Positions 1,166 to 64,000 of a stretch of 64,000 nucleotides of DNA are shown in pieces (the stretch's first letter is position 1; each line of letters starts with the position of its first letter). The notes under the pieces are model-generated. The model was not told the origin of the DNA. It made no database searches and was given only the letters and a program-made list of their open reading frames with translations. The position numbers were made by a program, and so were the translations under genes. This DNA comes from Seison nebaliae. Taxonomy: Eukaryota. The DNA lies in NCBI GenBank assembly GCA_023231475.1, contig JALJEE010002061.1:1-64000 (forward strand), written 5' to 3'.

Positions 1166-2040
1166 TCATTCATTCCTCTCGATTTGAGAGTTCCCACTAG
1201 CATCAGTATTTTCTTCATCATCTGTTCCACTTAATCGTTTTTCTTTAGTTCGCCGATTTTGAAACCAAACTTTAACCTAGGAAGAATAAAATAAAAAAAT
1301 ATTTGGATAAAATTAAAATAAACTTGTGTTTCACTTAAATTTAATTCTTGCGCTAATAGTTTTCGTTCTTGACCGACAACATAATGGTTTTCCTCGAAAG
1401 CTTTCTCTAAATCGATCAATTGACTAGGAGAGAAAGCGGTTCGAATTCTTTTAGGTTTTCGATAAGAAATTGCAACCGCTGCGATAGAAGCTTGACATAA
1501 CATTGCTGTTGTCAATAATCGAGTGGCAGCTTCGGACGAGAATGTTTTTGTTGAATTGTTAATCAAATTATAAAACTCATTTGATTGCCCTAATGTGGTT
1601 GTGATTGAAGTTGACGATGATGATGATGGTAATGGTAATGATGGTAATGATGATCTTAAAGTATCATTATTATTTTTGTATATTGAGTTAGCTGCTTGTT
1701 GAAGAACTTGTCCGAAAATTTGATTTGAGATATCCGTCGATCCTTCCGACGAATGATGACGGAGATTTTTCGAATTTTTATTCTCTAATTCAAATTGATT
1801 GGAATGGATTATTTCATTGAAATATTTCGGTTTCTTTGTTTCTCCATAATTCGATAACGCTAAAGTTGAGGAACGTTTCAATCTTTCTTGTTTGATGGTG
1901 TTTGTTGATAATTGATGACGAAGTAAATTCTCATTTTTAGATGACGTATAAGAACATCGATTCTGTTCACATTTTCTCACGTCGATATTCTCGCTATTTT
2001 TCTCATCAACAATCAAAGAATCGATAAGAAAACCAGCCAT
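1166..2040 (-). CDS. Emx: Emx/empty spiracles homeobox transcription factor; 2 exons (intron 1277-1323)
   Basis: Spliced homeodomain [61 protein letters not shown]-terminal eh1-like motif FLIDSLI; a 47-nt GTTTAT...CTAG intron restores helix 3. Confidence 0.93.
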
Positions 2041-5000
2041 TCTCGTTCCAATAACGATGGATTGTTTTTTCGCGAAAAAAAAGAAAAGGAAATGTAACAG
2101 TCAAATTGAATGAGAAGTTAAATTGGAAGAGAAGAAAATGAAATCTGTTCTGTAGATTGGAAAGTTAATTAAAGAATTTTTTATGACAAAATTGAAAGCA
2201 ATCAAGATTAATCGTTTCAGTAAATTTTATGAGTTGGCACTCGTCTCATATTTTCATGTGTGAAAGACGTTATGTAACCAATTTACTTATTTCCAATAAA
2301 ATTTTCTTCATGAACGAATCTATGAGTGAGATTCCATCGACTTAAATGACCGGAAAAAGGTAATTGGAATTGATGGATATATCGTACGTAGATTGGATTT
2401 CTTCTTCACCGCAATCATAAACCAATCAGATTCTTAAACGATTTGACATTAACGAAATTTGCGAGAAATCGTATTTGTCATTTTCCATTAATTCCTATCA
2501 ATTTCTACGAAATCACTTCGGTTAAAACAAATAACAATTACAACCATCATCAGCAATAATGATGATACTATTATCATTTCAATGGAATGTCTCCAATTGA
2601 TGGTTGATTGAAAATAAAAGACAACTCTTCAATTCTCTCTAATCTACTAATTCCGTCGTCTGAGTCTCGTTCACCACAACCGTTCTTTTATCGATCGATA
2701 GGAATGGGAAAATAATTGAAATTAATTTTATCTGAACGAAAGAATTCGAGAGAGAAATACATCTACCATCACAATATCTGGTAATTAGTTGATTGAGAAG
2801 TGAAACGGTGAAATTTCGTTGAGGGATCATCGAGATTTCTAGCTATTTCCACGACACATATTGGTATACTAATTGCAAATTATAATTGTGGAACATTAAT
2901 CCGTAAATAAATAAAATTGATTCACTTCTCGTGGACGTTAAGTGAAAGTGATGATAAATGGAATTGGAAGAAAAGAGAATGGACATTTGTGAATTGAGCA
3001 TCGATTAATTGGAGGAACGTGAAGAAATATGAATTATAAAAGAGATTAAGTTACTTTCATGAGACTCATCTAACTATCCATTTTCGTTCAACTTTCTCGC
3101 TTCTCCCTACGATATCGATGAAGAAGATGATGATGATGTATTCGATTACAAGAGAAGAATGAGATTCTTTTTTATTAACTGATAAGGTATTGTTCATAGA
3201 TTATCCATTATTCGTGACTATTCAATTTGACTATTCGTTTAAAAATTTTCTTAAAAACTTTGTAATGGATAACAATTATCATCATCACTTTCTCGTTTCA
3301 ATTGCCAATTAATCTAATCAATTGTATATATGTAGATTAAGGAAGTTAAATCCACAATTCAACATTTATTCAATCGGAACATTGGAACAAGTCTCTTTGA
3401 CAGATCATTTCTATTCATTCGGCTCATTACTATTTCGACTTGAAATGGAGATAGACAAATAATTAGGGATAATAATTAGTTAGCTGCCTTGTTACTAATA
3501 ACGATTCGATGAATGATAACATTTCTTTTCAAGAAGCAAAACGACAGTAGTCGGACGATGAAGAAATGTAATTGATGAAAATTCCTGTTATTTACCAAGT
3601 ACAACTCATTAAAGATCAAAGTTTTCTTTCTCTCAAAGAAAATATTCACATTTGCCGCTCACTTCCAAATTTCCATTCCAACGACAACGTTAATAAATGA
3701 TAATATGGTTAATTGACAAGAACGATCGTGCCAAATTGGAAGAATCGAATGAGGAGAAATAGAATTAAATTAATGCGAATTCTTCCTTTAACACATTCAT
3801 ATTCTGCACCGAAACTGCACAATTTCGTCGTTAGATTAGTTCGTTCTCGTTAGTTGATATCTATATGTTTGAACGATCATTTATAATTGAAGTCTGTTGC
3901 AATTAATACTTTTTAAAGAGAATTCTGATTGAATGTGGATTGAGTAGGTAGGCAGAGAAACTATAGCAACTAATAAGATGATAATGACAATCTCTCTTTG
4001 AAATGGATAAATATGCATTAAATATCGAATGAACGATTGCTGCACGTTATTTGTTAGTAAAATGATGTGCAAATATCAATTAATCGAAAGAATAAAGTTA
4101 GGAGGAAAATTCTTTTTTACTTCTATCACTTCCGATACGTTGTGTCATGTTCCCAATACAATTATTATTATTATTCATTCATAAAATGACGAGAAAAAAA
4201 TTGTTTCGATAAATCATTTATTATAAAGTTGCAATAGTCTTTTATTAGATAGAATCCATCAATTAGACCAGAGAATGTCGAGTTCGTGTTCCTTAATCTG
4301 CCACTTTTCTTTTGATTCTATAACGATTTTGGGTAACTCTCCGGGCCACATATCTCACTTTCCCAATATTCTCTACTTGTCATTCATTCTTCAAATTAAT
4401 GTCGTTCTAAATAGAAACAATGTAAAAATAATTTCATATATCTGATTTGTTTGAATATTATTCTAACAAAATTCTCTTGATCAGGTACCTGCTTGAAAAA
4501 CCTGATCATAAGAACTTATCAAAACAATTTAACATTCTCCACACTTTTCCATTACTAACAGAACGTGGAGAATAAAATGAATTGAATTTTGAACTTAACC
4601 AAATTAATACCCACAATAACAACAATTAAAGAACTTGTTATTGAATACCGATGATAAAGTATGATGAATGTCATTTGATGGTGTACAAATTCCTCCAAGA
4701 TAGAGTCTCGAATTGAACTGAAAAATTTTATTTAAAAATTATAATTTAAAAAAAATTTTAAAGAATGGTAACTTCTTTTTTTTCAATGAATTATTAATGA
4801 TTATTAAGAATTATCATTCTAAAAGAATGTTCATTAAATATTAGTCTTATCCAAGCTTCCATCAAACAATATACCATAACACTTAATTTACTACTTATTT
4901 TACTTACTTTGTTAGTAAAAAAAGAGGTATGTAATTTTCATTTTATTTCCTTGAAACTTTCAATTGACTGAAGTTGATGAAGTGCTTGAGAAGTAATGAA

Positions 5001-5241: not shown

Positions 5242-8200
5242 ATGAGTTTATTCTTTTTAATTTTCTTCATTTTTCCTGCAGCTTCCAATGCCCTGACGTC
5301 GGACATTCGACTCTGCTCTTCGTTTCGCAGTCGACATCATGTGTCAAAGGAGAAGATGGAACTTTATTCAAAGTGCAAGATAATTTACGGAGATGTTTTC
5401 ATCTTTTTCCATAGTCAATCGTCGAAAGCCACGACTAAATTATCTTTCACAAATCTTCAAATTGTCACTGGATATATTTTTGTTTATCGGGCGAGAAATA
5501 TTGAGAATTTACGCGACGTCTTCCCCAAACTCCGAGTAATTCGCGGCGAGTCATTAATCAAAGAAGCATCTTTATTGATTATCGATTGTGAGGATTTAAG
5601 ATCGTTGACACTCTCGTCGTTAATTAGAATTGAACGTGGAAATGTTGTGATCTTACACAACAATAATTTATGTCTCTCTAATCAAATCGATTGGGAAATG
5701 ATAATTGACGAAAATTATCGATCACATTTCCAATTTAACGGACATGGTACGACTTGTTTCCAGAAATGTTCAACGAATTTTTGTTTGGAAAGACGAGAAT
5801 CGACGAAAGAGAAATTTCATTTGAAAAATGAAAAATTATTATGTTGGAATGAGAATGAATGTCAATCCATTTGTAACATCAATTCCTGTACGAGAAAAGA
5901 TTATGAGAAGGACAATTGTTTGATTAAGAGTGGTGAATGTTTATGTCATTCTCAATGTCGATATGGTTGTTATGAGAAAGATTCTCCTTTGAATTGTGTA
6001 GAATGTGAAAATGTTTCTTTTAACTTCTTTTTTTTTTCTAATTCTTATTCTATTTTCAGGTTTTCGATGAAGAAATCGGATGTGTCGACAAATGTCCAAC
6101 GAATAAATTGAATTTAAATGGAATTTGTATCGAGAAAGAATTATGCGGAAATTTATCGAAAGATTATGAATTCGCTTTTGAACTCAATTCGACTCAAATG
6201 AAAATATTCGAAGATCGATGTGTCGATAAATGTCCGTTGAATTATCATTCGATGAATGACGACACATTTTGTCGGAAATGTTCCGAAGATGATTGTCTCA
6301 ATGATTGTAGTAAGAGTAATCATTCACCCATCATAACGACGATGCAAGAATTAGAATTATTGAAGGATTGTGAAATAGTGAGTGAGATTCATATTCGATT
6401 GAAATCTATCGATGAAACGAATTTGATGGAAGAATTGAGAAGGAATTTGAGAAATGTGAGAATTGTGAAAAATTTTATTTACATCGAAAATTCAAATATT
6501 AATTCAATCGACTTCCTACCAAATCTTCAACGAATCGAAGGAATTGAAACGATGGAAACATTCTCATTTTATCTTTATTCAAATTTGAAATTGAAATCAC
6601 TCGAACGGAAATCGAACAATCGATTAAAAATCAATGGTGAAATTTTCATCGGTTATAATCGATTGTTATGTATGGACGAAATCGAACGATTTTTCAATTC
6701 CACAAATAAAAAGTTCGATCGGAATAAATATCTTATGAATGGAGATGAAGCGATATGTCATCAGATCAATCTCAACATTTCCCTCACTCAATTATTCGAC
6801 AAACAATTCTCTCATCGATATTCGAACGAGAATGAACTACATGATAAATTGGAGGAGTTGAATGAAATTTATGAGAAATATAAAGAAGTTATTCCATCAT
6901 CAATTCTCAGTGAATCATCAAAAACGGATTTTTATCGTAAAATTTTAATTCGATGGAAAAAATTATCAGGGAATTATTCAATTCATTCAATTCTCGCTTA
7001 TCAATTCCATTATTGTAAAGTGGATGATAACTTAGATGAGAACGAATGGAACGTTCTCTATCTAATTGATGATTATGGTGATGACGAATATTATCAGTTT
7101 ATTCTCAATGAACAACATTTTCAAACGAACAAAATCTATCGATATTATTTACGATCAATCATGTACAATTTAACGACCGAATCATTCGTTAGTGAAACAA
7201 ACAAATTTTCCATTCATTCACATCATCCCACTATTTATTCGACGATTCCCGTTGAAGCGACAAGTCTCGACCATCAAACCATATCGATAAATTGGAAGAA
7301 TTTGTTCTTGTATTCCATCCCTACACATTTCTATCTCATCCAATGGCAATCAATTCCGATCGATATTGATAATTCTCATAATTTCTGTAAATCAAAATTA
7401 AATTTGAATCAAATTCTCGACGTCTCCTCAAATTATTCGACGAAAGAAGAAAAATTTCCATTGTCAGATACATGTATAAAAACATCGAAGAAGAATGAAC
7501 GATCGTTCTCTTCCATTAATCTTAGGAGGTCGATTATCGAACATGCAGGAAATGAGGCATTTGGTCGAAATTCCAAAAAAAATGATTATTGGAAAGAATT
7601 CGTTGAAGTGAACGAGACACGAATTGATGATTATAACAAATTCGATTGGAATCAATTTTTCTCCGACGACGACGACGACGATGACGAGACATTACGCGTT
7701 CGAAAAAGTTTATCGAATGGAAATGAAATAATTTATTCATTAATGAAACTAAAAAGTAATCAGTTCCAAATCATTAAAAATGAAAATATCGATCGATTAT
7801 CTCGCAATCTTACCAATTTGTCATATGAACATCCAATTCTTATTAAGTTAAGTGTTTGCTTCCAACAATCCAATCATTTCATTAATACCATCAATGATTA
7901 TTTAATGGAAGAATATTTAAATTTAAATAAATCATCCATTTCCGTTCCTCAATATTTTTCTGAACGTACCAAATATTTCCGACCGTTAGAGGAATCGTGT
8001 AACGAGATTTCAGTAATGAAAATGATGACGAAATCGAAAGAGAATGTCGATCAAATCGACAAATTGAGTGGAAAGAGAATTTTTGTGAAAAATCGAAATC
8101 TCATCGAATTGACATTCGAACAACCGGAAAAACCGAACGGAATGATCTTCTTTTATCAAATCCGTTATCGAAGAATTAGTAAAAATGATGACGAATATCA

Positions 8201-9818
8201 TTGGCAGTATTATTGTATCAATCATCAGAATAGTAGTTCAATTTCCATCAATTTAACGAATATTCTCAGTTCATCATTATATGGAATAAGTGTGAGTGGA
8301 CGGTCGTTGAATGAGAAAGAATATTGGTCAAAAATGATTTATGTAGAAATACCATCAATCCAATCGACAATGATGAGAAAGATGATTATTTCACTTCTCA
8401 TTCTCTTCCTTTTCTTTATCGTCCTCTTCTCTTCCTTGATGATTATTCGAAGGAGAAGAAAAATGAAATCAAAATGGATTCCACAAACTAATCTCCAATT
8501 TTATGTTTCAAGTGAACATTGTGATTTCGTGAAGAATTGTCTCATTCCACAACAAGTCATTTATCGAACAAATGTGACGGTAGGTGTTGGATATTTTAGT
8601 AACGTTTATCTCGGTATCATTCCATCTCCATCATTCTATAGGAATGATAAATTAGCAACGAATAGAAAAGATTTTTTGGAAAAATTCAAATCCGATCCAA
8701 ATGGATGTCAATGGAATAAAGTCGCTATTAAATGTCTATCCAATAAAATTGATGAATTATCTTATAAGAAAATTTTGGTAGAAGCGATTCAAATGAGACA
8801 ATTAATGTCTTCTCATATCATCTCATTTTATGGAATTACTCGAATGAATGACGAGAATAATGAAGAGGAATCGGATCATATTCAATTTCATAATAATCAA
8901 ATTCTTCCATCACCAACAGCCATCGTAATGGAATTTATGTCGTTAGGTGATTTGAATACTCTCATCAAATCATTCACAATTGAAACGGAGAATCTTCAAG
9001 TTCTTCTCAAACAATTCTGTGGTGAGATTGCCGATGGAATGTTATTCCTTCATTCTAAACGATTCATTCATCGAGATCTCGCCACTAGAAACATTTTAGT
9101 TAATGAGAATTTAATAGCAAAAATTGGAGATTTCGGTCTAGCTAAAGATCTTTATAGTCGCGACTATTATTCATGGTCATCAAAAAAATCGGAAATTCCA
9201 ATTCGATGGATGTCACCAGAAGCGTTGGATGGACGTGCTTCTTATCCGGCTGATGTTTGGAGTTATGGAATTGTTCTCTGGGAAATATTCACGTTAGGAC
9301 GAGTGCCATATGATTTCTTCAACGACAACATTCAAGTTATAACATTCATCAAATGTAAAGGTACATTACCATCACCTGATAATTCGCCATCCATCATAAA
9401 TAATCTGATAAAGAATTGTCTTAAATTCAAGGGAATTGAACGTCCAACATTTCATGACATCTTAACTCAATTGTTACCATATCAGAAAAGTAAATTCCCA
9501 TATTATTCCTATTTCCATAATGGATACTCACCAAACGCTTGTCAACTCCAACGACAAATGTTCACATTACCAGAACGATTCAATCTTCGATATCAACATC
9601 GCAGCGACGACGAATCTGATGTAACGAAAATTTCAGAAATCTCGCCCGAACATTCAACGAAAAAGACTCCGTCCACTAAATTCTCTAGATTGTCCACGTT
9701 AACAAATGACAAAATTTTTCATTGTGATACGGACAGTGATTTCGATCATCCAGCCAACGAAGAAGTCAATCATCTCTTGAATGTGATCGAAGAGAATATT
9801 GACAAAGTCTTTCATTAA
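5242..9818 (+). CDS. InR: Insulin/IGF receptor-family receptor tyrosine kinase; 2 exons (intron 6013-6059)
   Basis: Signal peptide; L1 domain (LRDVFPKLRVIRGESL); furin-like Cys-rich region; L2; FnIII (PEKPNGMIFFYQI); TM helix; kinase with VAIK, HRDLATRN and DFGLAKDLYSRDYY. A 47-nt intron joins ORFs 5242 and 6108 in frame. Confidence 0.93.
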
Positions 9819-10498: not shown

Positions 10499-12508
10499 TT
10501 ATCCAAGTATTTCATGGATCTTCTTCAAAGCGATTGGATGTAAACATTTTTCGATATCCTTTAAAATTTTCATTGCTCGATTTCTTCCTTTTCCTTCATC
10601 AAATTGAGCCATTGCTCGAAATAGAGAAAGTGAATATTTCATTCTCCCTTGTTGACGAACCATCTCCTCCCCCATATCCATTGCCACACTCACATCATTA
10701 TTCAATCCGACAATAATCCAATTAAAACGGATTTCTGAATTTCGATTTGACTCTAAATCGAACGATTTATTCATTCTTAAATATTTCATTTGACCAAACT
10801 TACTTCCAGCTTTCACTAATAAATGAGTCAACAAAATTTTCTGTGAAGTCATCAATGATTTGAATTGAGATGTGAATGAATCGATTTCTTTCTCACTTTC
10901 ACAATTCATCAAATCCGTCAACAATGTTTGACATTGTGCTTCCAATACTAAATTTAATTTTAATAGATCAATTTTAAAATGACCTTCTCTTTCAATAATT
11001 TCACATAATTCTTCGATCTGTTTCTTCTTTTTCTGATCAGTTTCTGGAAAGTGATGTAATAAAGCATTCACGAATTTCTCAGAAAACATATAACGATCAT
11101 GATAATCTGCTTTCAGAAATGATCCTTTTAAAAACTCCAAGAACAATTTATAATTATTTTCAAATAATTCTTGTTCTAACAATCGGAGGAATAATTGACC
11201 TTTTTCGTAGGGAACTGGCGAGACGGTATCATCCGGATCGATATTTTTCACATCGATTTTCAATTTCGTCAATAAACTTTTCTCCTTTTTCAACTTCTCA
11301 TCCGATTCACTATCCACCGTTCTTTTGATAAATAGATCGAGAATGTGATATCCATCATATGTCAAGAAATCACGAACTTGTTGGAAATTATGATTCGGAT
11401 AATTTTCACAAAACACTTTAGATACCACAATATTCTCGATATATCTCGTAACACCTTCATTCAACCAGAAATGTTCCCAATTAATATTCGTCATATAATT
11501 ACCGGACCATGAATGAGCAATTTCATGAGCAACGACTGACATTAATGATTTGTCTTCAGCGAATATGGTGGGAGTAAGAAATGAAAGACATGGATTCTCC
11601 ATACCACCATATGGAAATGATGGTGGTAATACTACCACATCATATCGTCCCCATGGATATTTAATTAATAAACTCTCAGCTGTATCTAAATAATTTGGGA
11701 GAACTGTCAATTCCTTAGCATATTTCTCCACCAGATCCGGTTCTGCCCAAACTTTCGATCGATAACTAATTTCTATCGATTTCATTTCACCAGCAACTGC
11801 CGCTAATAAATATGATGGAGTTGGTTGTGGTAATTGAAAATAAGAGATATTTTTCATATTTTTATGAATCGTATTCTCGATGGAATTGGACGGAAATAAA
11901 CCGATAATTGATTTCATCAAATTTTCATCTTCTTCAATTGCTGCCATCAAAATCTTTATATTTTCATCAGGACAACTCATTCGACCGAAAATCTTTTCAA
12001 TCTTCGATCCCGGACTATCCATACAAGGAACAATTGATCTGGCATGGATCGCTTGACATTGCGTGTACATAAACGGAGATTTTTTGAATGATGTTTGTTC
12101 ACTTGTCATCCAATTGATGGCTGATGAATCATCATGAATTTCATAATCGATTCGAATATTTATTGGTTTATTATCTTCATCTAATTGAATCGATAAACTA
12201 TTTCCCATAAAATCAGGAGTAATGGATGTCACTTTATATTCTAAGTCTCGACCATTCACCAAATTGGAGATACGATGGATCTTCTGATTCTCCATATCCA
12301 TCACAATTTGCTGATTATTCGACTCAGCTGTCCTTCGACTGAAATCGTAATAAGCTGACGCTTGAATACATTTTTTATTTAGATCAATATTCCAATCCAA
12401 AAATAAAGTTTTAATTGAGAAATTTTCATAATTACTGGTTGTACTCGGATCGATCATCGTTCTAATAGAGAAACTTCTTCTAAGGACTTTTAATAGAGAA
12501 ATATACAT
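10499..12508 (-). CDS. LTA4H: Leukotriene A4 hydrolase / M1 aminopeptidase, intronless
   Basis: YTQCQAIHARS, PPSFPYGGMENP, zinc motif HEIAHSW...WLNEG, VPYEKG, C-terminal QGRMKY. Confidence 0.92.
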   Translation of the reverse strand: MYISLLKVLRRSFSIRTMIDPSTTSNYENFSIKTLFLDWNIDLNKKCIQASAYYDFSRRTAESNNQQIVMDMENQKIHRISNLVNGRDLEYKVTSITPDFMGNSLSIQLDEDNKPINIRIDYEIHDDSSAINWMTSEQTSFKKSPFMYTQCQAIHARSIVPCMDSPGSKIEKIFGRMSCPDENIKILMAAIEEDENLMKSIIGLFPSNSIENTIHKNMKNISYFQLPQPTPSYLLAAVAGEMKSIEISYRSKVWAEPDLVEKYAKELTVLPNYLDTAESLLIKYPWGRYDVVVLPPSFPYGGMENPCLSFLTPTIFAEDKSLMSVVAHEIAHSWSGNYMTNINWEHFWLNEGVTRYIENIVVSKVFCENYPNHNFQQVRDFLTYDGYHILDLFIKRTVDSESDEKLKKEKSLLTKLKIDVKNIDPDDTVSPVPYEKGQLFLRLLEQELFENNYKLFLEFLKGSFLKADYHDRYMFSEKFVNALLHHFPETDQKKKKQIEELCEIIEREGHFKIDLLKLNLVLEAQCQTLLTDLMNCESEKEIDSFTSQFKSLMTSQKILLTHLLVKAGSKFGQMKYLRMNKSFDLESNRNSEIRFNWIIVGLNNDVSVAMDMGEEMVRQQGRMKYSLSLFRAMAQFDEGKGRNRAMKILKDIEKCLHPIALKKIHEILG

Positions 12509-17500: not shown

Positions 17501-19736
17501 ACAAAGTTGCAAATTTACCATATTCCATTTCACCTTTCAACAAGCTCTCTAAATCGGGTTGATTAGTAACGCCTAATTTCTCATAGAAATCCGTTAAAGT
17601 TTCCTTATCGTAATATTGATTTTTTGTTATTTCGAACAATTCGCGTGTAATCTGCTTTTCATCGAATGCTTGCTTCTCATATTTTGAGAAAGGAAAAAAC
17701 TTTTTGAATTTCTTTTGAAACATTCCAAATTCTTCGATCGAATCGATTAATTCATCGAATGTCTCAATGGATTGAATAGAAGCGGTTCGTTCATATAGGA
17801 TTCCATCCTCGTTACCCGATTTCACCATTTTCTCTTTGTTCAAAGCTAATGGATCACGCATATCAACCAAATTGGAAAAGAAGTCCCAATCCATTCGACC
17901 ACTAATCAACTTTTCTATTTCAGTTCGTGTCAATTTATTCAAATATAAATAGTTCTTTATCGTCTCGTCAGGTAGATCTCGTTTCCAAATTCCATTTTTA
18001 ATTTCTGGAGTTATTTCCCAGCCAGTTAACGCTCGTCTTAATGTATAACGATTATGATGTCGCATGTGATTCTGGAGACTTTTACCTACCGACGAATTGA
18101 TCACTCCCTCTCTCTTCAGTGCCAATAAAGTTTGATCGAAAATGTCTTTATTATCTCGATTTGCATATAATCGTTCTACATATCGTTCTAATTTCCCATA
18201 TTTTTTATCAACCGATTCGGAATTCGTTTGATTTTTGAGAGTTTTCTCAAAATTTACTGGAATCGGTTCAAAAGCGTCAGCCAATTTCCATTCGGCCGAT
18301 TGTTCCTGATATCTATCTAAATTGTCTTCAATAAACTGTTGGACATTCAATCGAGCTTTCTGATATTTCACCGTTTCCAGATCCTTGAATTGCTCCACAT
18401 CATAATATAATTCGAAAAATTTTTGACTGATAATTGTGATGATTTCTTCCGAGAACAACTTCGCCAAATCATTATCACCGATATTCAATAGATTGCCACG
18501 ATCTTCAAATAATTTGAATAACGGTTTATTTTTACCCCATTCCGGCACATGCTCATTCAATCTCTTCAATTGTTGGAACGTTAATGGCTCATTAATATCA
18601 AAACGAATTGGTCCGTCTTCTTCCGTACTTTCTGTTACCACTTTTTGTGTTCCGATTTTTTGTGCTTCCGGTTTTTTTGTTTTCAGAAATTCGGCGAAAA
18701 GTTTCTTATCTTTCAATTTCATCGAATATTGTAAATCGACTTTCTTACTTTTTAAAAACTCATCAAAATACATCTTTTTATTCATCTTATCGTCATCACT
18801 AGTTCTCGGTTGTTTGGAAATGGTTGTTATGGTAACGCAACAATTGTAGCCGGATGGGAAAACGCCTTGCACACAACCACATTTCGTTTTGTTTACTTTG
18901 TATCTGATACGATTGCGATTGATGGTTGTGTTATTTTGATTCGTATTATCGGTAATCGATTCATCTAATTCATTCATGTTATTATTCTTGTTCGTAATAC
19001 CATCATTCATTTGATTTTGATTCTCATTTAATGGTTCTTGAAAAAAGTCGAGTCCTTTCTGATGACAATCGAATCTCAAATTCTTCTGAATACAATTATA
19101 TTCGAGATTGAGATATGAACGAAATTCTTCAATATACGCTTTAAAATTCTGCACAATATATTTATCATAAATGATGGTTTGCCAATGAAGTATCTTCCCC
19201 AATTCATATGAAGTAATTTCAGCTTCATTTATCAATTGAGCCAATGTGGCATTCTCAACGTTACACTCATTGAAATAAAGCCAAAGTAATCGTGGTGGCC
19301 ATTTGCGTCGAATGATATGTTCAATGAAACAATTCACTGTCGCTATTAATCGAATGTCAATAAATCGGCTTTTAGTTTCATCAGATAATTGATTATAATT
19401 CATTGGCAATGCAGCACCAACTACCAGACTTCGTTCCTCCTTGTTTAAATAAGCAGTTTGATCCAGAAAATTATTGACGAAAGACGTCATCATCAAATGG
19501 ATCTGTTTGAAGAAACCATCAATATTTGAAGTGATGGAAATGTCGGTGGATAATGTGTTGACGGATATATCGTCAGTATCAGATTGTGTAACTTTTCCAT
19601 TCGATTCGAAATTTGATTCAATTGGTGTTATTTCGGTTAATTTTTCACTTTCAAAATATTCGTACGAACTGAGATTATCAAAATCGAAGGAATTTGCATT
19701 CGATATCGTCGTACTTTCATTATCATCATAACTCAT
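14559..19736 (-). CDS. Large charged/coiled-coil protein with a C-terminal CFAP119/CCDC189-like (flagellar C1a-32/CLAMP) domain; 9 predicted exons
   Basis: The 1297-aa ORF continues in frame through 8 GTT..AG introns (15840-15890, 15602-15644, 15513-15569, 15394-15446, 15168-15226, 15053-15096, 14879-14935, 14672-14718). The spliced tail TGITRETVNTLL...CILLENIMDFAK...KPGHSRMLFNRLELESILTKINRTYFLFQRLYKHLFCATYVLDL resembles the C1a-32 family from memory. Confidence 0.6.
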
Positions 19737-22930: not shown

Positions 22931-23621
22931 TTAATCGAATTGGGGTACATCGAGATATGGTCGGAAACGACGCATATACCAGTCTTTCCGTCTTTCTGCT
23001 TTATCGTCACGGAATTCATCGTAGCAATAAGTGGAGCTAAGTTTCCATTCCATTTCTTCCTTTAAGTCCACCCGACGTTGACTTTCAATTCTTTTGAACG
23101 AGTCCATTAAATTGTCATATCGTTTCAATAATTTTGCACAATAAGTTTGATAATCTAGAAATGTTATGGAACTATTAAGTGATATATAATTCGAACCTCG
23201 ACAATCCATTTTACGGTATTTCACTCGGAATTTCTCAATGCGACGATATGTACGATACGTATCTTCATCTTTAAATTTGGCGTACATCGCTCTCAATAAA
23301 TTATCAAGAAAGAAATTGCATTCCAAAACTTTCGTTTTTTCACTTATAACTAGAAAAGAGGGAATATTATTTGTTGAATAAACAGAAATATCGTTAACCA
23401 TCAGTAGTACTCATATCTTTCACATATCCCAAATAATCTTTAGTAGCTTTCGTCTTATCCCAAAATGGATTGTAATTATTAATTGCTACAGATAAATTCT
23501 GTCGAGCAGCTCTAGCTTGGTCACCTTTCGATAAATCGTATGTGGCCACCCATGGAGTTGCGGCTTCGATAAAACTCACAAAAAAAAAGAAATTAATAAT
23601 AATTAAAGTAAAACTAAACAT
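22931..23621 (-). CDS. Uncharacterised secreted protein; 2 exons (intron 23350-23398)
   Basis: Signal peptide MFSFTLIIINFFFFVSFIEAA; a 49-nt GTT..AG intron joins the two overlapping ORFs in frame (STTD-V-ISEK). Confidence 0.65.
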
Positions 23622-26715: not shown

Positions 26716-26845
26716 GAGAGATTGTTCTGATAAAATTTTTATTTTTACTCGTCCAAATACTTCTTTTCCTTTGTCAAATTATAGTTTGGTGTCAAATTAA
26801 AATAATTTTTTTGTCAAATAAAACTTCTTAAATTTCTCTCAATTT

Positions 26846-36647: not shown

Positions 36648-36648
<1 letters not shown>

Positions 36649-38150: not shown

Positions 38151-39376
38151 TTACATGAAAAAATTAATATTAATCTCTCGTCCGACGCGACGCTGATTCT
38201 GTGGGACAGCATGGAACAATTTCGCTTCTGGTTCCTCACTTAAGTCTTTAGGAAATTCTAATATTGCTGCCACATTGCCACATCGATAACAATAATTGGG
38301 AGCACTCCAAACCGTCACTAATTTTTTATCGAACATAAATTTGAATCCATCGTTCACAAGTTGATGTGCACGACAAATGAGTTGAATGTTGTTCGAATAA
38401 ATGAATTCATCCACCACATTACTCCCAAACAGCCAACCGGCACCTCTCGGTGATGAATACCAAGTGTTCACTTGAGTTTCGGGATCGGACCACATCAGAT
38501 CACAAAAGGCACCATGATGTGGAATTTCTTGATGTCGTTCGATTAATTGCATTTGATCGATCCATCGAATTTCAGGTGATAGACCACCATGAACACAGAG
38601 TATTTTGTTGTCAATTAATGCAGAAATTGTCATGTAATCAAAGAGATTACAACACAATCTCCAAATACTGGAATTACCATATTTCTGTAGACATTCATCA
38701 TAGAAACCATAAACTTGTGTTGTTTGTCTAGATTCGTGATTGCCTCTCAATAACATTATCCTTCGTGGATATAATGCTTTCAACAACAACAATTGAGTTA
38801 ATGTTTCCAAGGAGAAATAGCCGCGATCGACATAATCGCCCATAAATATATAATTATTATCAGTTGTTCTCATTTCTCCACCTGAAACGAAAAGAAATTT
38901 TCAAAATTTAATTTTGAGAATTAATTTTATTAATTTTCAATTTAAGAATTTTCAAATTAACCCGTTGTGAATAGTTGTTGCAAATCGTAATATTGACCAT
39001 GAATATCTCCGCAAACGATGACTGGTGTGCTCACTAATTGCACATTATCTTCTTGCGACAAAATATTCGTTACATACTCCACAAGTAATTTCATTTTCTT
39101 TTCTGGTAAGAAATGACAATCAAGACACGATTCGTACATCTCACTCAATGGGAGATTGGGAGCAGTGAATTGATGATTCTTCATGAAACATTTCTTCATT
39201 TCTTTCCCAATCGCATTCTCCTTCTCTTCGAAAGTGATTGTGGAGGAACCGGTCACGTCGATTTCTTCTATTTCCAGAATTGTGTTACCGTCCTGGTTAT
39301 TTTTAGTGATGACGCCATTGTCGAATTCTTCTGTTCCTTCCATCATTTGATCACCTCCATCATTCTCTACCATCAT
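38151..39376 (-). CDS. PPP6C: Ser/Thr protein phosphatase 6 catalytic subunit with N-terminal extension; 2 exons (intron 38882-38961)
   Basis: [59 protein letters not shown] are PP6-type signatures. Confidence 0.88.
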
Positions 39377-39893: not shown

Positions 39894-40431
39894 CTAGCAA
39901 GCTCGTTTCACATTTTTATTTCGACATAAATTATTGTTCATATAATAATTGTATTGTTGGAGATGAAGAGACAGATCGACCGATGATTCGCTTTTCATTG
40001 ACGATTGGGCAATCTTCAACTTCTCGAACATATTCGAATATCTCTTACAAATATTTTTTATTTGTTCTAATAATTTCAAAAGAAAAACTCAATTCTGAAA
40101 TTTATGAAAATAAACTTTTTTTACAATTTTGTTGTTGTAATAAATTCTTATATCTGTCCACTTCAACTCTCGGCAACCACAAATTCTTCATCGTCTTCAA
40201 ATAACAATATTTCAATAACTTATTTATCATCCACGCACAATCATTGTTCCGTTTCGACATAAATTTCTTCCCTCTCACGTAAGTTTCGATCAGATTCAAA
40301 TTCGGTTTCACCCGACGATTTCCCGATTCCATAACATTATATATGTGGTGACTGGCTGGATAATTCTCACCATAAATCACTTCCAACATCATCAATATTA
40401 AGATAAAGAATATTTTAAAAAACATGTTCAT
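39894..40431 (-). CDS. Uncharacterised secreted Cys-containing prepropeptide; 2 exons (intron 40067-40115)
   Basis: Signal peptide MNMFFKIFFILILMMLEVIYG; dibasic sites RR, KK, KR; 6 Cys; a 49-nt GTT..AG intron joins two ORFs in frame. Confidence 0.6.
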
Positions 40432-43913: not shown

Positions 43914-46597
43914 ATGCCACGATCAAATCCCCATAATAGAGGACCGAAATTGTCTAAAGATTATTCCATTGAATCCACATTGGAATTGAATCACCACCAA
44001 CCATATAACACAAGAGAATATAGAGAATCTCATAAACGACATTATACGAATGATACTATGAACAGTAATTTCTCCAATGACTTGTATGTCATCGACCATC
44101 ATGAAGGTTATAGAAATCAAGGATATTCGGAAACATCATTCAATAATCTGCATGAAATTGAGAGTACTGGTAATAATTTCGAGACAATAAAAAACTTTGA
44201 TGAAGACGATGAGAATGAACGTGGAAATTGGGGGAATAAAGCTGATTATTTAATGGCATCGTTGGGTTATGCGGTAGGTTTGGGGAATATCTGGCGATTT
44301 CCATATTTATGTTATAGAAATGGAGGAGGTTTTTCTTTTGATTTATAATTAATTCAATTTAATAATTATTGAAGGAGCGTTTCTTATTCCATATGTCATT
44401 TTTTTATTATTTGTGGGTTTACCAATTTTTTTCTTGGAATCAGTCATTGGCCAATATACGAGTCGAGGTCCCTCTATGTGCTGGGAGATGTCTCCTGCAT
44501 TTCGAGGTATCGGAGTAGCTATGGTTCTTTGTACGTCCATGTTACTTATTTATTACAACGTAATTGTTGGATGGGCATTATATTATTTCGGTTTATCATT
44601 CAATAAAGTTTTACCTTGGAGTGGTTGTGATCCTTCTTGGGCTACTACAAGTTATTTTCATTACGGTTTGTGGCTTTATATGTCCTTTTCATTCAAAGGT
44701 TGTAAAGAAAATTATACGAGAGCGGCATTGTTGTTCAACTGTAGTGATAGTTTTATTTATAAGGAAGTAGATGGGATTTGTCGATTCAATAATAATGACT
44801 CAATTGTCGGTTATACCAATTTGACTGCACTCTTCAAATTCGACCGGCCAACTTATCCATCTGAAGATTTTTTTAAGTTTGATATTTTATTTTTGAATTA
44901 TTATTAAAATTATTATTATTATTTTCTTATAAAATTATTGCAGAAGTTCAGTCTTGAAAATGGATGATACACCAGACGAAATGCACAAATTGAAAGGACT
45001 TGTACCACTTGTTGCGGTTGCATTATTAGCCGCTTGGGTACTCGTATTTTTGGCAATGATTAAAGGAATAAAAGCAGCAGGAAAAGTTGAAAATTTTAAA
45101 GAATTCTATTTTTCTCATTCGTTTCATTAGTTAATTTGGTTCACTGCTTTATTTCCTTATCTGGTTTTGTTGATATTGGGAATTCGGGGATGGTTATTAG
45201 ATGGTGCTGGTGATGGAATTAAATATTTCATTGATCCAAAAGTCGAGAAGTTGACATCTCCGGCAATATGGAACGATGCAGCTGGTCAAATATTCTTTTC
45301 ATTGTCAACTTGTTTTGGCGGTCTAATCGCACTCTCCAGTTACAATAAATTCAACAATAATATGATGAAGTTTTTTTTTTTTAAAATTTGATTTTTTAAC
45401 TCAAATTTTAGAGATGCATTTATTGTTAGTTTCTCCAATTGTCTGACGAGTATTTTTGCCGGATTTGTCTTATTTGCCTATATTGGCCATCTCTCATTTC
45501 TGGCAGATATACCAATCGAACATGTCGTGGCAGACGGTTCAAATTAAATTAAATTGAATTATTTAGTTGAACATTTATTCCTAAATGCAGGTCCTGGATT
45601 AGCGTTCATCGTTTATCCATTTGCTGTTCTCCAAATTCAGCCTCCACAATTATGGTCGGCTATCTTCTTTTTCATGGTCATCCTTTTAGGATTAGATTCA
45701 GTTGTTTAGTAACCAATTTAAATGGTTAATAATAATTAGAAATTTTTTTAGTTCGCACTCTTGGAAACAGTGGTTACTTCAATTAAAGATTTATTCAATA
45801 TACCAAAAAAGCGAATGCCTTTCGTCATAGCTGGATGCTGTACATTTTATTTTCTCTGTGGCCTTTTCCTTACCACCAGAGTTATTTTTTTAATATTTCA
45901 TTTTAATTCTAAATAATTCTTAATTTATTTTGTATTCGAATCGAAAAGACCGGTTTATATGTGTTCGAGATATTGAACGATGCTAGTGGAGGAATTGGAA
46001 CATTAACAATCGGTGTATTCGAAGTAGTCGCAGTTATTTGGGTATATGGTTAAATTGCATATAAAGAAGAAGGTATGTTCAAATTTTTTAAATTTAGGTT
46101 GGTCGAATTTAAAAGCAGATATCGTTCTGATGTTAGGGAAAGGTTATGATACATTCTGGATGCATTGCTGGCATATAATCTGGAGATTTTTTTCACCCGG
46201 TGTTATAATAGTTTGGCAATTGTTCATTTCTATTTCTCCTCAATCTTTCATTCTTTAGGGAACTTTAGCATTCCGTTTTTATTCGTTACCATCGTTGAAA
46301 GTGAATGACTTAGAATTACCTGATTGGGCACTCTATGTTTCTTATACGTTGAGTGGTTTGATTATTTTACCAATCGTTCTCGGAATTTTCATCAGAGTTA
46401 TCACTTATATGAAAAGAAATGGCTTTTCATTTCGAGTTAAATTCTTTTTTTTCGTAAGTAAAATTTATAATAACTAAATTCTCCTAAAGTCATTCCGGGA
46501 AGCATTCCAATACACGGAAAAGTGGGGACCAGCTCACACTGGTAATCGTGACAAAGCATATCATCTCCCAAATATTGTTCCCGCAATCGACTCCTAA
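43914..46597 (+). CDS. SLC6 Na+/Cl- dependent amino-acid transporter, copy A; 12 exons
   Basis: [61 protein letters not shown]. Introns 44329-44374, 44651-44698, 44877-44943, 45086-45130, 45370-45411, 45537-45590, 45704-45751, 45881-45948, 46049-46097, 46211-46258, 46436-46489. Confidence 0.93.
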
Positions 46598-46970: not shown

Positions 46971-49639
46971 ATGGCATCAGAAAAAAAGAGAAACGTTTCC
47001 ATTTATTCTATAAGACCTTCATAAAATCTCTTTAGCGAAAAAGGAAAGTGCCTTCACCTCAAATATGTACAGAGGATTCAATTATATTAAAATCGAAAGA
47101 ATTGAAAGATTTGGAATTGCAGAAAGTTGACCAACTTCAGAATTTGAATTTTCCTGAAGATGGTAATAATGGTGCTGACGATAGGGGACAGTGGACGAGT
47201 CAACTCGATTTTATTGTGGCTTCTTTAGCTTATGCGGTCGGACTAGGAAATATTTGGCGGTTTCCTTATTTATGTTATCGTAATGGAGGAGGTTAAATAT
47301 TATTTCGACGTTGAAAGAAATAAATTAATTTTTTAGGAGCTTTCTTAATTCCATATGTGATATTTTTGTTATTAGTTGGAATACCAATCTTCTTTCTCGA
47401 ATTGGCTATCGGTCAATATTCTTCTCGTGGTCCAATTCGTTGTTGGGAGATGTGTCCGATGTTTAAGGGTTTGGGTATCGCTATGTTCATCATAGTAAGT
47501 TATATGAACATTTATTATAACGTCATTGTTGGATGGTCTCTGTATTATTTGCGATTATCATTCTCTTATGTGCTCCCATGGAGTTTCTGCGATCCCAAAT
47601 GGGCAACTCCTAGTTATTCAATTAAAAATAAAAAATTTTAAATTTTAAAAATAATTTGAATCATTTTGAAAATATCAGATTGTGTTAATGATTTCTCGAA
47701 AGATGCACTACTTTTCAATTGTACAAATACTACTCTATATCATGAAGTAGATGGTCGTTGTTATAATGCGAGTGATGATATGATTGGTTATACTAATTTA
47801 ACTTTGAGACTACAAGACTCCCATGTCACGTTTCCGGCTCAAGAATATTTCCAGTTAGTTTTCTATTTGAAAAATTTTTGATAATTTCTATTTTTAAAAC
47901 TTTTTCCTATAATTTCTATTTATTAAACTTTTTGTGATAATTTCTATTTGGAATAACTTTGATGATTTCAAATTAAAGAAATGAATTTTTAGAGATGTCG
48001 AGTTCCATCAGTGAAACCGGTCATATAGTTCGACATATTGCGATCTCGTTAGTTATCGCTTGGATTCTTTTATTTCTGTGTATGATGAAAGGAGTAATGA
48101 ATGCGAGAAAAGTTTCGTTATAGAGTATTATTTATAATTTCTATGAAGTTCAGTTAATTTACGTTACGGTTATATTACCGTATCTGGTATTGATCGCTCT
48201 CGGAATAAGGGGATGGTTATTAGACGGTGCAAAAGAAGGTGTTCTCTTCTTCATCAAACCAGATGTGACAAAGTTGTTGAATGCGAAAATTTGGAATGAC
48301 GCCGCTTCTCAAATATTTTTCTCGTTATCGACATCTTTCGGTGGTCTGATAGCACTTGCCAGTTATAATGATTTTCATAATAATATGCTCCGGTTCTCCT
48401 CTTCACATTCTCATTCTCTTAACTTCTTCTGTTTGAATTAGAGATGCATTAGTGGTGAGTGTGGCTAATTGTTTAACGAGCATATTTGCTGGTTTTGTAA
48501 TATTTGCCTATATCGGCAATTTAGCCTTTACATCTCAATTACCCATCGAACATGTGGTTGATAGCGGTTTTAATTTTCTCCTAATTTCATTAAACAATTT
48601 CTCAGGACCGGGATTAACTTTCATAATTTATCCGTTCGCCGTATCTCAACTACCGTTCTCTCAATTGATGTCATGCATTTTCTTCTTCATGTTATCGTTA
48701 TTGGGACTGGATTCGATGGTTATTAATTGGTTGTCATGATTAATGAGAAATTTAATTTAACGCCTATTTTTAGTTTACTTATCTAGAAACGATCGTTTCA
48801 ATTATCTTAGATGAGTTTCCAAAACTAATGAAATTTCGATCACTCGTCATATTTATAGTATGTACAATCTTCTGCATAATGGGCATTCTATTTACAACAC
48901 AAGTATTTCTTTTCTCATTCAGATTAGTTAACTTTCATATCATCTGATGTACAGAGCGGTATATTCTGGGTGGAGTTGTTCAACACCTATGCAGCAGGTT
49001 GGGCCGTGTTGTTGGTGTCCGTGTGTGAATGTTACTGCATCATGTGGGTGTATGGTTTGAATATTCTCCATATTCCTTTCAATATTTCTTTGCATATTTC
49101 TCTTGTAGGTTGGAATAATTTGCGAAACGATTTGTTGTTAATGCTCGGGGATGGATATGATACGAAGTTACTTGATATTTGGTATTATATTTGGAAATAT
49201 ATATCGCCAATAATTAATATCGTTCAAATTTAAATTCTCACAATCATTTCATCACCTCCTTTTAGTGCGTCATAGTTTTCGTTTTAAGTGAAACGCCATT
49301 GTTACAAGTGAGCGGTATCGCCTTTCCTGCCTGGTCATACGCTGTTGGCAATCTAATGACAACATTCGTAGTATTAAGCGGAATCGGTTTTGCCCTAATC
49401 TTTTCAATAAGAATCTTTATGAAACATTCGGTTAATTTCATTCATTCTCCTCCTAACGTCAATATTGTGTGAAGTCCTTTGAAAAAGCCTATTCACCCAC
49501 CAAATATTGGGGACCGGCATTATCTCAAAATCGAGCGAAGGTAAAACATTTACCTAACTTCATTATGAATGTGACAAAAGATATTGAGAAAGTAACAACG
49601 TATGATAATCCTGCCCTTGAATCCGAACAAACATTATAA
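46971..49639 (+). CDS. SLC6 Na+/Cl- dependent amino-acid transporter, copy B (tandem paralogue); 13 exons
   Basis: Same motifs as copy A. Introns 46995-47035, 47292-47336, 47613-47678, 47854-47978, 48112-48153, 48393-48441, 48567-48605, 48719-48773, 48903-48954 (GTA donor), 49055-49108, 49222-49265, 49431-49474. Confidence 0.93.
47859..47968 (+). repeat. Intronic minisatellite, ~4 degenerate 25-28 bp units (TTTCTATTT..AAACTTTT..ATAA)
   Basis: Four successive tttctattt...ataa/atga units inside the SLC6-B intron 47854-47978. Confidence 0.75.
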
Positions 49640-51158: not shown

Positions 51159-52237
51159 ATGAAAATCAAACGGGCTAAAGTCCCGATAATTGAATCACAG
51201 ACTTTACCAGAAGATAAAGAATCAGAAGAAAATGATGAAATTGTTGACGAAGATGTAAAAGAAAGTGAGGAAAATAATGACGATGAAGATGATCAATCAA
51301 TGAATTCCGATAACGAAGATGAAGATGATAACTCCGATGAATCGATGAGTTCGAATGATGATGATGATGAATTGATGCAGAAAGGCGACAAAAAATTATT
51401 TGTAAATAAAGTTAAATTTAGAATAAATTTTCAAAAAAGATATAATGTGAAATTTTAGGGGAAGTTATTGAAGAAAAGTGAAGAATTGAAATTGGATTTG
51501 GAATGGCGAGAACGATTATCGATGATATCTGAAGATCAAAATGAATCGATCGATAAATTGAAATTGAAAGATACATTGAGTGACGTAACATTGAATAGTG
51601 ATGTGAAAACGAAGAATCAATTATTTGAACAATTATTCCAGAATGACTTCCTTCTCGAAAGATATATTCAAATGATCACACACAAAGGACTTGTGAAATG
51701 TATCGAGAAAGGGAAAATCGAATCACCAAATAATCTCAAGAGACCTGACGACTATTTCGCTGAGATGTTGAAAACGGATAAGCACATGGAGAAAACGAGG
51801 AAGTTCCTCGTGGAGAAAACGGAGGAATTGACGAAACGTGACCGAATTCGACAATTACGTTTAGCGAAGAAATTAGCGAAGGAGAAAGCGAAAGAACAAC
51901 AATTGGACGAGAGGAATAAGAAACGAAATCTTCAAAAGAAGAAAGAGAAGAAATTGGAATTGAAAGATGGAAAAGTTGACAAGAGATGGAAGAGGAATAA
52001 GAATGGCAATCGAATGAAGCACGACGGAAAATTCGGATTTGGCGGACAGAAAAAACGCTCCAAATATAACACGAAAGACAGTTACGCTGATGTGAACAAT
52101 GAGAAGAAGTTGTCGAATAACAAACGTCCAGTCAAAACAAAAGTTTAATTTGTTTTCAGTTTATTTCATTTTGAATTTCGTCCACTTTCTTGTAGAGATT
52201 GGGGAAGAGTCGTCGAACGAAAAGAAACAATCATTAA
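51159..52237 (+). CDS. EBNA1BP2: rRNA-processing protein EBP2; 3 exons
   Basis: Introns 51411-51458 and 52143-52195. Motifs KRPDDYFAEMLKTDKHM, KFGFGGQKKRSKYNT, terminal RLGKSRR. Confidence 0.92.
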
Positions 52238-61051: not shown

Positions 61052-64000
61052 TTTCCGAGGAGAATGTCGAACGTCTGAGAAACATAAAAAATCTCTTCGA
61101 GAATGGAATGGAGAAGGAAGTGCCTAAATATGAAAAGAATTTTCTTCCGAAAACAGCTGAATCGACAAAAGAAAGAATGGCGAGGTAAGAAGTTTAATCA
61201 TTCATCATTCGATATCATCACTTTTATGATTCCATTTCTTTACGCTTTTCTTGTTGATGTTGTCGTCGTTGTTGTTGTTGTTGTTTGATGTTCTCAACAT
61301 TTCTTCCGATTACGATTATCTTTCCCTCTTTTTTCTCGTCGAAGAGAATATGAAAATGGAAAAAGTTTCTTTTCATTCCATTTCTAATTTTATTAGAAAT
61401 ATTTTTATCGATTCCTGTTTGATTCCTAATCTGGTTTTGATGAATTATTATTGATTTAACTGATTGATTGTTTCCATCTTTTTTCTTCTTCTTCTTCTTC
61501 CCATTACATAATATTCCCAAATGGTTAACAATATGAAAAACGATTTCTATTCGAAATAACATATTCGGTTTAACAACAAAACTTAAATCGACTTCAAATG
61601 GAATTGTCTTCGAATGGAATAGTGATGAAGATAGTGGAACGAGTCAACCAAGTCCTGAATTGAGTAGTGAGGGAATTGTTAATTGTTCGAAATCGGCAGC
61701 ATCCATGACTTGTAGTACTAGTTCATTGATTGATCAATATCAGATACATAGTGCTCTCAACATCGATATTGTTACATCTTCATCATCAACAACGATATCA
61801 TCGCCAATTCATAATCATGTCATAGCAACGGCTGTCAATATTATCAATCGTTCGCCACCATTAGAAGCGAGACAATCAAGTAAATTCTCATCGATACTCT
61901 CCTCATCATCTCAATTATCGTCGCCACAATTGCCCCATTCCATCACATCATCAACATCTTCCATCGACATAACGAGCAGAGTAGATTCATATAATATTTG
62001 TGAACCAGAAATTTTCAACGATATGAAAGGATTGAATAGATGGAACGATCAATATTCTCCCAATTCCTCCACATCTTCTCTCACTGATTACATTATTCGC
62101 TCTTCATCAATTAATCAAAAGTTTGTTGTGGATTCTGTTTTTCTTTTTCTCCCCACTATCTAACCATTGTAGCTGAAGGACTTTCTTTCATTTTACTTTC
62201 ATTTAAAAGAAAATTTTCTTTTTTTACTTTCCTTTTTCCCCAACCGCTCCCCGAAAAAATTACCCAAATCTTTTATTAGCTAGCTTGAATTCATCTTGTT
62301 CATCGAAAATCGATCGAATTAAATTCAAATTGACATCCTTCCTTCAACTTTTCCATAGGTTGACGATGAAAAGTGAAGAATCAGAAGAGACTCCAATAGA
62401 ACGACGAAGTGAATTATATCAATTACAATCCATCTCTCAAACGGCCAAAAGACGAGAATTATTATTGAATAATAATAAAGAATTTGATGACGAAGAAGTG
62501 GAACGTCGTCCGCCCGACTTGAAGAAGATAACACCACCGAAAGATATAAAAACCGAATATGACAACGATCCTCAACAACGTTTACCCGACGTCATTCGAC
62601 ATGACGATGAATTGAATGAAGATCTAGTGTTCAATACGGCTCAATCTCGAATCGCCCAATATCAACGAACAACAGAAGAAGAGAATAATAAAATGAGAAA
62701 TACAAAGAACTTTATCGAAGGAGAATTGGTTGATGCGGCATTGACGAAAAACCGTTTGAAACAATTTGAAAATTCGAAATTTCAATCCTCTTCTCCATCC
62801 ACTCCAACATCAACTGCATTAGATGAATTGAAAGCATTGAAAGGAAAGAAAGATTTCGTATTTTCTAAAATTATACAACGTCGTGAAATTACCGAACAAC
62901 CGCCAGTAGTAGGGAGTGGAAATATTGAGGATAATGAAAATTATTTGAATGACGAAGATCGTCCACCAGAAGGAATTGCCAAAGAGAATTTGGAGAAATT
63001 TACAAATTATGAGAAACATCAATCACCTCCGAAAAAATCGATTGTGACGATTCCAGTTGCAACGAATGGTGAAAATAAATTATCATACGAATCGACACCA
63101 ATTGAACGAGATCCCACAATCATATCAGAAGAAACGAAGCCAACCGATATTATTCCTCAAAAAGGTTCAGTTTCTCTTCTATTTTTTTCTTTTTCCTAAA
63201 AAATTTTGTGTGCTTTTCGTAAAATTAATCATCTGATTATAATTTGTGTTTGACTTTATCATTTTTATTCTTTCCCCACCCGTCAATTCGACTTTAACGG
63301 AATCAGGTTTCACTAAACAATTATTATCCAAATGGAATTCGATGACTAATTTATCGTCATCGATATCGATCTCAAATTCATATCAGAAATCGAGTAGCTC
63401 GAATGAGAATGATAATAATGAAACGATAAAAACATCAAATAAAACAAATTTAGTTTCCAATAAATTATCAACGTCAACATCCGTTCTATTTAACGGGAAC
63501 AATAATAATGAGATGAATGTTCAAGAACCCAATCGACGAACATTTAAACATTCAATTGTGACACCAATGAATCCCTTGAAAATTGATCGTCGCTCCTCAC
63601 TTTATCATTACTCACAGACCACACCATTAAATGTTGTGAAGTTGAATGAGAATGAAAATGAGAATAGTCTCCCATCAACAAATGACGAAAGTGAATTACC
63701 ACCGAAAGGTACTAACTACTGTTTTTTCTTTTTGTTTCGTTCTAAATTCACTGCTAATTTTTTTCCTTTTCCTAACGAAAAAAATATTAAATTTCCCAAA
63801 AAAAATTAATTTCCTGTTGAAAACTTTCTCTATTCCTGTTGTGATGACACGTGTACGAAAACGTACGTTTGTTTTACGGTTTCATTTATTTCTTTTTCCC
63901 ATTTTATAGGTACAACCAAAAATCTACTTAACAGATTTAATCAAATTGATGATTCTTCAATCAGTTCACCTCTTTCCCCATCTGTTCCCAACAAAAGAAA
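61052..64000 (+). CDS. Partial LIMA1/Xin-like actin-binding repeat protein (continues beyond window)
   Basis: Exons 61052-61184, 62359-63164, 63307-63708 and 63910- are phase-compatible. Recurring motifs LRNIKNLFENG, AALTKNRLKQFEN, PPEGIAKENLEKF, IPQKG|FTKQLLSKW, ELPPKG|TTKNLLNRF. No LIM domain is visible in the window. Confidence 0.55.

Follow-up and report, generated by a model that had tools for sequence, protein, structure and literature searches.

Introns in a 64-kb window of contig JALJEE010002061.1 of Seison nebaliae (the whole stretch analysed, hereafter the window) almost always begin with GTT, a 5' splice site (donor) carrying T at the third intron position (+3). Among 55 introns predicted from the DNA in 16 genes, from 1323-1277 on the minus strand to 63709-63909 on the plus strand, 52 start with GTT, three with GTA and none with GTG or GTC. 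Our parallel count reproduces the near-fixation claimed in an earlier note on this DNA (59 of 63 GTT, four GTA). The usual animal consensus GTRAGT, with a purine at +3 and G at +5, is not what these donors show: T occupies +3 in 52 of 55 and G occupies +5 in nine, in line with the note's view that +5G is dispensable. We are highly confident that the bias is real and genome-wide. Seison lives on crustaceans, and the accessible text of the genome paper, which also describes mRNA-seq data and two Seison strains, presents it as a small epizoic member of the Rotifera/Syndermata (PMC8351084); the window is gene-dense animal DNA with a GC content of 31%.

Introns were placed by four approaches, with GT/GC and AG ends imposed in all but the first. 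NCBI holds Seison nebaliae protein models, not RNA evidence, that match the PP6, EBP2 and one SLC6 paralogue of the window at 99-100% identity, and a second SLC6 model maps exactly onto the gene adjoining the first SLC6. Mapping three deposited proteins exactly to the DNA, with no splice dinucleotides imposed, resulted in 24 introns with a single GT-AG placement at 24 of 24, comprising 23 GTT and one GTA. Profiles built from non-Seison homologues then scored all frame-compatible GT/GC-AG alternatives within 36 nucleotides (nt); the deposited donor ranked top in 23 of the 24 cases, with one tie in an unconserved N-terminus and two introns lacking a rival placement. GC donors, offered as variants in these tests, were never preferred and tied once, in an unconserved N-terminus. 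Likewise, a profile made from 34 stomatins in the database put GTT top at five of five stomatin introns, two of them without a rival placement. The third approach, a gene finder that carried no +3 score and treated A and T alike in introns, and whose length and composition terms came from training on the 24 model introns, made 54 calls (47 GTT, one GTA, five GTG, one GTC). Its seven non-GTT calls were dropped as wrong, the one in EBP2 by homology and the other six by frame reading, and some of its GTT calls were likewise judged wrong and dropped. Further genes were closed by reading frame, most of them with Pfam support. Two candidates with no verified frame, a GTT intron at 4467-4407 and a GTAAGA donor near 61185, were excluded from the count. 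Introns backed by a deposited Seison model and/or the homologue-profile test form tier A (GTT in 29 of 30); adding tier B, in which a recognizable family goes with a restored frame, gives GTT in 42 of 44. Where an in-frame GTA competes with GTT in EBP2 (51402 against 51411, same acceptor), it scores 8.4 bits lower, in agreement with the deposited model; in the last intron of SLC6 transporter a, an in-frame textbook GTAAGT at 46454 loses to GTT in both the deposited model and the profile score.

AT-richness, already judged insufficient as a cause in the earlier note, does not explain the excess. T follows GT at 40% of GT sites in the window (2194/5428) and at 26 of 57 GT inside intron bodies, which are about 49% T. 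Binomial testing of +3T returned p=2e-17 against 40% T and p=2e-13 against the intron-body value of 48.6%, while tier A alone gave p=1e-8. The letters at +4 to +7 are at background level, with A and T at 21 each for +4 and G at eight for +6 (n=55), and all seven hexamers quoted in the note to illustrate this freedom (GTTTAT, GTTTCT, GTTGAT, GTTAAC, GTTCCG, GTTGGT, GTTCAG) occur; +8 and +9 are T-rich (40 and 38 of 55). Among GT sites that would give an intron of 36-80 nt with the same acceptor, a comparison covering the 52 introns of at most 80 nt, the used donors were 50 of 78 GTT, two of 23 GTA, none of 23 GTG and none of 14 GTC. Avoidance of GTT in coding DNA was not seen, as 265 of 737 GT in long frames are GTT and GTT is the commonest valine codon (70/199). 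Of the 84 competing GT sites near donors, 28 are GTT, which is no clear depletion.

Removing the GT..AG segments restores the protein, the mark of U2-type introns. U12-type (minor) introns have GTATCC or ATATCC donors, and such an origin was rejected since none of the 55 begins with GTATCC. The description 'non-canonical 5' splice site' given earlier applies to +3, the intron ends being canonical GT-AG. We treat the atypical +3 as a variant feature and leave the introns in the U2-type class, where they appear to form a short, U2-like (major spliceosome) GT-AG group recognized by intron definition with a transformed donor. Their median length is 49 nt, with 51 of 55 within 39-68 nt, an anatomy that fits the 'minimal GTT plus length' rule proposed in the earlier note, and their bodies are poor in G (7%). 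Exon ends lean towards purines (-1 A in 26 and G in 18, -2 A in 29; n=55), and the acceptor is a bare AG preceded by T, C or A in 29, 14 and 12 of 55. A branch-motif scan of 52 introns found YTAAY in 25 at scattered distances and CTRAY in six (three coordinates being 1-2 nt off in this count); the same scan revealed no position above 0.1 bit upstream of the acceptor AG and no fixed branch motif. With AAG acceptors frequent (12/55) and neither a branch signal nor a pyrimidine tract prominent, the 3' end of the intron looks relaxed too. Exon-end AG accompanies two of the three GTA donors, compared to three of the 52 GTT donors (p=0.02). An apparent exon near 61185 on the plus strand ends in GAG/GTAAGA (slash, exon-intron boundary), a canonical-looking donor for which no acceptor was found; taken with the long GTA intron that starts at 63709, this invites the question whether longer introns keep GTA donors.

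A bias of the method toward GTT was rejected, as the same procedure returned ordinary donors elsewhere. Nine intron-candidate loci were inspected, six were scored and five gave placements (locus L069 gave none); four other eukaryote loci yielded five introns with GTACGT, GTATGT, GTACGT, GTGAGA and GTGCGT. The one rotifer-like locus among 80 listed loci (metagenomes), L060, has 34% GC and a 94% match to a protein named for Adineta ricciae. It contains PP6 in a bdelloid-like stretch at 1600-4942, along with two further genes that we take to be U2AF1-like and short-chain dehydrogenase-like. Its 10 introns in three genes comprise seven GTA, two GTT and one GTC (Fisher p=1e-6 against Seison), with +5G in three and -1G in seven. 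With GTT in two of ten, fixed +3U is not rotifer-wide, as judged from one small locus. Since a loose +5G is common to Seison and the bdelloid-like locus, +3U would be the Seison-specific part; loose +5 may be older in rotifers, with fixed +3U not seen at this single locus. In one DNA run, low-depth contigs with about 83% similarity lose alignment at two introns of stomatin B. At one of these, alignment picks up again precisely at the +3 T (27160), which weakly hints that the stomatin B GTT might be shared by a diverged lineage. Runs X2 and X5 over 26500-33800 gave low-depth contigs about 80-90% alike, mainly exons, that break at introns and represent a diverged second lineage or paralogues. 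Alignment joints over the same interval, taken from four of seven listed runs (three behaved as DNA and one aligned nothing), lay at ends of placed introns in none of nine cases, a result with no bearing on expression.

The donor pattern is what we observe; everything said here about the splicing machinery we infer from it. Few pairings in animals are as conserved as that of the U1 small nuclear RNA (snRNA) 5' end with the GURAGU donor. Early in splicing, +3 of the donor faces U1 nucleotide 6, which in the ordinary 5' end, 5'-AUACUUACCUG, is a pseudouridine that pairs with +3 A or G, GTG being a wobble partner of normal U1. In the mechanism that we favour, the Seison U1 5' end would carry A for pseudouridine at nucleotide 6 (5'-AUACUAACCUG), so that GUU would pair and GUA or GUG would not. 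The major (U2-type) spliceosome would define each intron across about 49 nt using GUU, the bare AG and the G-poor composition, with minimal pairing to U6 and with the A-rich exon end held by U5 loop 1; stronger pairing on the exon side would let the rare GUA donors persist. A changed U1 nucleotide 6 ranks first because it is the simplest account of both the absence of GTG and the need of GTA for help; as the cause of +3U, we put it slightly short of an even chance. Entamoeba, whose U1 compensates for its +3U donors, offers a precedent. In the normal U1 register, the 52 GTT donors carry -2A in 26 cases (17 expected), -1G in 16 (9.5 expected) and +5G in nine (3.7 expected), and total matches reach 102 compared to 80 expected (p=0.003). 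A seesaw between -1G and +5G was not detectable among the donors (p=0.7). The window contains no Rfam match to U1, U6 or U5 genes, either at gathering score or at expectation values (E) up to 1, and a lone match to short U1/U6-like motifs, at 21739, was rejected, as it lies inside a long coding frame.

Several points weigh against a changed U1, and some against the donor bias itself. A register shifted by +1 fits equally well (110 matches, 87 expected; p=0.002), and pairing with U5 suits the exon-end A's better than pairing in either U1 register does (97, 68 expected); some of these A's may be owed to codon use. +6U, favoured by normal-register U1, is below expectation (19, 25 expected). Both -1G and +5G are missing from 29 of the 52 GTT donors, which would leave any U1 duplex there very weak, and a lone fixed letter suggests a single pocket no less than it suggests duplex energy. 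Donors altered while U1 stayed unchanged in yeasts, Giardia, Trichomonas, Micromonas and Thecamonas, according to the available part of one study (bioRxiv 10.1101/2022.06.08.495308). The compensation argument for GTA rests on three introns, 23 of the 55 introns belong to two SLC6 paralogues sharing most intron positions, and all placements are predictions. The preference against GTAAGT at 46454 amounts to 3.8 bits only and may simply reflect length, as that site would give a 36-nt intron and the shortest placed intron has 39 nt.

The single fixed position with free neighbours would suit a pocket, and U1 could be ordinary at nucleotide 6 while U6 or the catalytic core selects +3U at a later stage, through a change in ACAGAGA or in Prp8, U1-C, LUC7 or SNRNP27; contact between U(+3) and U6 would then be the single intronic letter still checked. 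Accessible parts of the literature report that +3 faces a U6 G and that, in fission yeasts, the extra G:C pair formed by a +3C blocks the second step (PMC4299874), that snrp-27 mutants shift +3 preference (PMC11732430), and that U6 ACAGA can pair with GUUUGU and most odd-donor lineages kept normal U1 (bioRxiv 10.1101/2022.06.08.495308). In Seison, however, positions +4 to +6 show no excess of Watson-Crick matches to U6 (47, 54 expected), and a further change would be needed because unchanged U6 handles +3A in other eukaryotes; we consider this explanation unlikely, if a serious one. Rather improbable, too, is a genome-wide U1 pairing one base out of step (+1G-C9, +3U-A7, -1-U10), perhaps aided by a change at U1 nucleotide 8, by which a rare human mode would have turned into the default. 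Some human donors have been proven to use such shifted registers, as far as the source at hand goes (PMC4856993), and the GTT donors show -1 purine in 41 of 52 (25 A, 16 G), +5 purine in 31 of 52 (p=0.002), +6G in eight (3.7 expected) and GTT-NN-GT in six of 52 (1.8 expected), with the overall p=0.002 given above. Yet GTTAAG occurs in none of the 52, -2C and +7U are at background, and a shift with unchanged U1 predicts common GTA and GTG, where three of 55 are seen.

That no machinery changed at all, the excess arising from T-rich introns, drift and gene-model bias, could appeal to the T content of intron bodies (about 48-49%), the T-rich +8/+9 and the predicted nature of all placements. We regard it as very improbable in view of the test against intron-body T, the background-level letters at +4 to +7, the agreement of non-Seison profiles and +3-blind finder on GTT, the ordinary donors obtained by the same method in four other eukaryote loci, and the different donors of the bdelloid-like locus at similar GC. 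The earlier note's proposal that this lineage re-tuned donor recognition therefore stands as the best reading, the bias being real and beyond AT-richness, except for its suggestion of METTL16, N6-methyladenosine (m6A) or SNRNP27 as direct cause. Their effects, including those of SNRNP27K, are tied mainly to +4 in the sections available (PMC11732430), and they could thus explain a loose +4 and not directly a fixed +3U.

Table 1. Introns placed in the window, by gene. Slash, exon-intron boundary; ^, intron position in the protein; aa, amino acids.
Gene	Position	Strand	Introns and donors	Support
Emx-like homeobox	1277..1323	-	CAA/GTTTAT..TAG, 47 nt	Restores NLSETQ^VKVWFQ; Homeodomain Pfam match stops at exon end
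Insulin-receptor-like (name presumed from the earlier note and motifs)	6013..6059	+	AAT/GTTTCT..CAG, 47 nt	Open 1509-aa frame
Large unnamed gene	15890-15840, 15644-15602, 15569-15513, 15446-15394, 15226-15168, 15096-15053	-	Six GTT	+3-blind finder; open 1514-aa frame
Unnamed gene	23350..23398	-	ATG/GTTAAC	+3-blind finder, frame only
Stomatin B	27514-27472, 27267-27219, 27162-27114	-	Three GTT	Top-ranked by 34-stomatin profile; one without rival
Stomatin A	29221-29176, 28915-28863	-	Two GTT	Top-ranked by 34-stomatin profile; one without rival
ALG14	30250-30312, 30450-30495, 30619-30661	+	CAG/GTATAA (GTA exception), GTT, GTT	Open 172-aa frame, LGS^GGHTTEM; Pfam Alg14
Agrin-like (Kazal, laminin-EGF)	32435-32386, 31693-31651, 31253-31205	-	Three GTT	Open 448-aa frame; Pfam
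PP6 catalytic subunit	38882..38961	-	CGG/GTTAAT..CAG, 80 nt	Model P0001; first of 5 by non-Seison profile
Unnamed gene	40067..40115	-	GTT	+3-blind finder, frame only
TIM9-like (name presumed from twin CX3C motif)	41845-41885, 41982-42025	+	Two GTT	+3-blind finder; twin CX3C motif restored
FAM166/CMI2B-like	42487-42532, 42889-42936, 43144-43192, 43323-43383, 43503-43548	+	Five GTT	Open 315-aa frame; weak sub-cut-off Pfam match
SLC6 transporter a	44329..46489	+	11, all GTT	Model P0123; 11/11 top-ranked by non-Seison profile
SLC6 transporter b	46995..49474	+	12: 11 GTT and, at 48903-48954, CAA/GTATTT (GTA exception)	Model P0121; by non-Seison profile 11 top-ranked (two without rival placement), one tie in unconserved N-terminus
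EBP2	51411..51458	+	AAA/GTTAAA, 48 nt	Model P0335 reads KLFVNK^GKLL
Last gene	63165-63306, 63709-63909	+	AAG/GTTCAG; AAG/GTACTA (GTA exception, 201 nt)	Open frame to window end; repeated PxKG^xTK motif

Intron density varies within the window. Intronless frames of 2-4 kb at 6042-9818, 10499-12457, 15843-19739, 19919-22603 and 24202-26715 adjoin genes with 11-12 introns, and the insulin-receptor-like gene has one intron in 1509 codons. The glycine codon GGC is nearly unused in long coding frames (2 of 146; GGA 85, GGT 49, GGG 10). An open frame at 161-829 on the minus strand carries QGSILAP and YADD motifs and presumably resembles a reverse-transcriptase fragment of a non-long-terminal-repeat (non-LTR) retroelement.

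Practical consequences follow for annotation, as the +3-blind finder misplaced the EBP2 donor at an in-frame GTA and a finder favouring GTA/GTG is expected to err more. The GTT donor could further serve as a character for Seisonidea-Acanthocephala relationships, and Seison offers a natural experiment on which contact (U1 nucleotide 6, the U6 G facing +3, U5 loop 1 or a protein) sets +3 preference. A description of GTT donors in Seison was not found in the literature searched, which left supplements and most subscription papers outside, and to this extent the novelty suggested earlier holds. In its accessible text, the Seison genome paper has a single mention of 'splice site', concerning GENSCAN, and none of 'snRNA' (PMC8351084); the part at hand of a lamin paper mentions alternative splicing only (PMC10125929), and the accessible part of a 30-species donor survey including 17 animals shows no GTT consensus (PMC10599564). 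As far as this literature goes, Seison is apparently the first animal with a transformed GTT donor. We think it somewhat better than an even bet that here, for the first time in an animal, the 5' splice-site code has been rewritten throughout the genome; the readout of +4 to +6 would have been given up and almost only GUU would be read, via a changed U1 or a register shift.

Entamoeba is the one published +3U lineage found; in its U1, ACAAAC replaces ACUUAC and so matches the GUUUGU donors, and other odd-donor lineages mostly kept U1, according to the available part of the study (Roy and Bowser, bioRxiv 10.1101/2022.06.08.495308). Like Seison, Entamoeba combines near-fixed +3U on GT-AG spliceosomal introns with an AT-rich genome. 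In contrast, its entire hexamer is fixed (88-90% GUUUGU) and it is reported there to be intron-poor, whereas Seison, an animal with up to 12 introns per gene (11-12 in SLC6), fixes +3 only. GTTTGT is found in none of its 52 GTT donors, and membership in an Entamoeba-type class, marked by the full hexamer and low intron density, was rejected. Atypical human donors using shifted or bulged U1 registers share +3U and the major spliceosome (PMC4856993, citing Roca and Krainer 2009); in the sections at hand, validated shifted registers make up about 1.5% and pair strongly further on, while the Seison donors are the majority and lack GTTAAG. U5-class 5' splice sites and METTL16/SNRNP27K-linked shifts resemble Seison in weak +4 to +6 and A-rich exon ends, but the shifts run from A to U at +4, mostly in intron-poor yeasts, with no fixed +3U in the accessible account (PMC11732430), and -1G is weak in Seison (18/55). 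Strict transformed donors elsewhere come, according to the partial sources available, with intron loss and more donor information. Seison presents the opposite, an intron-dense animal in which one atypical letter is fixed and the remainder released.

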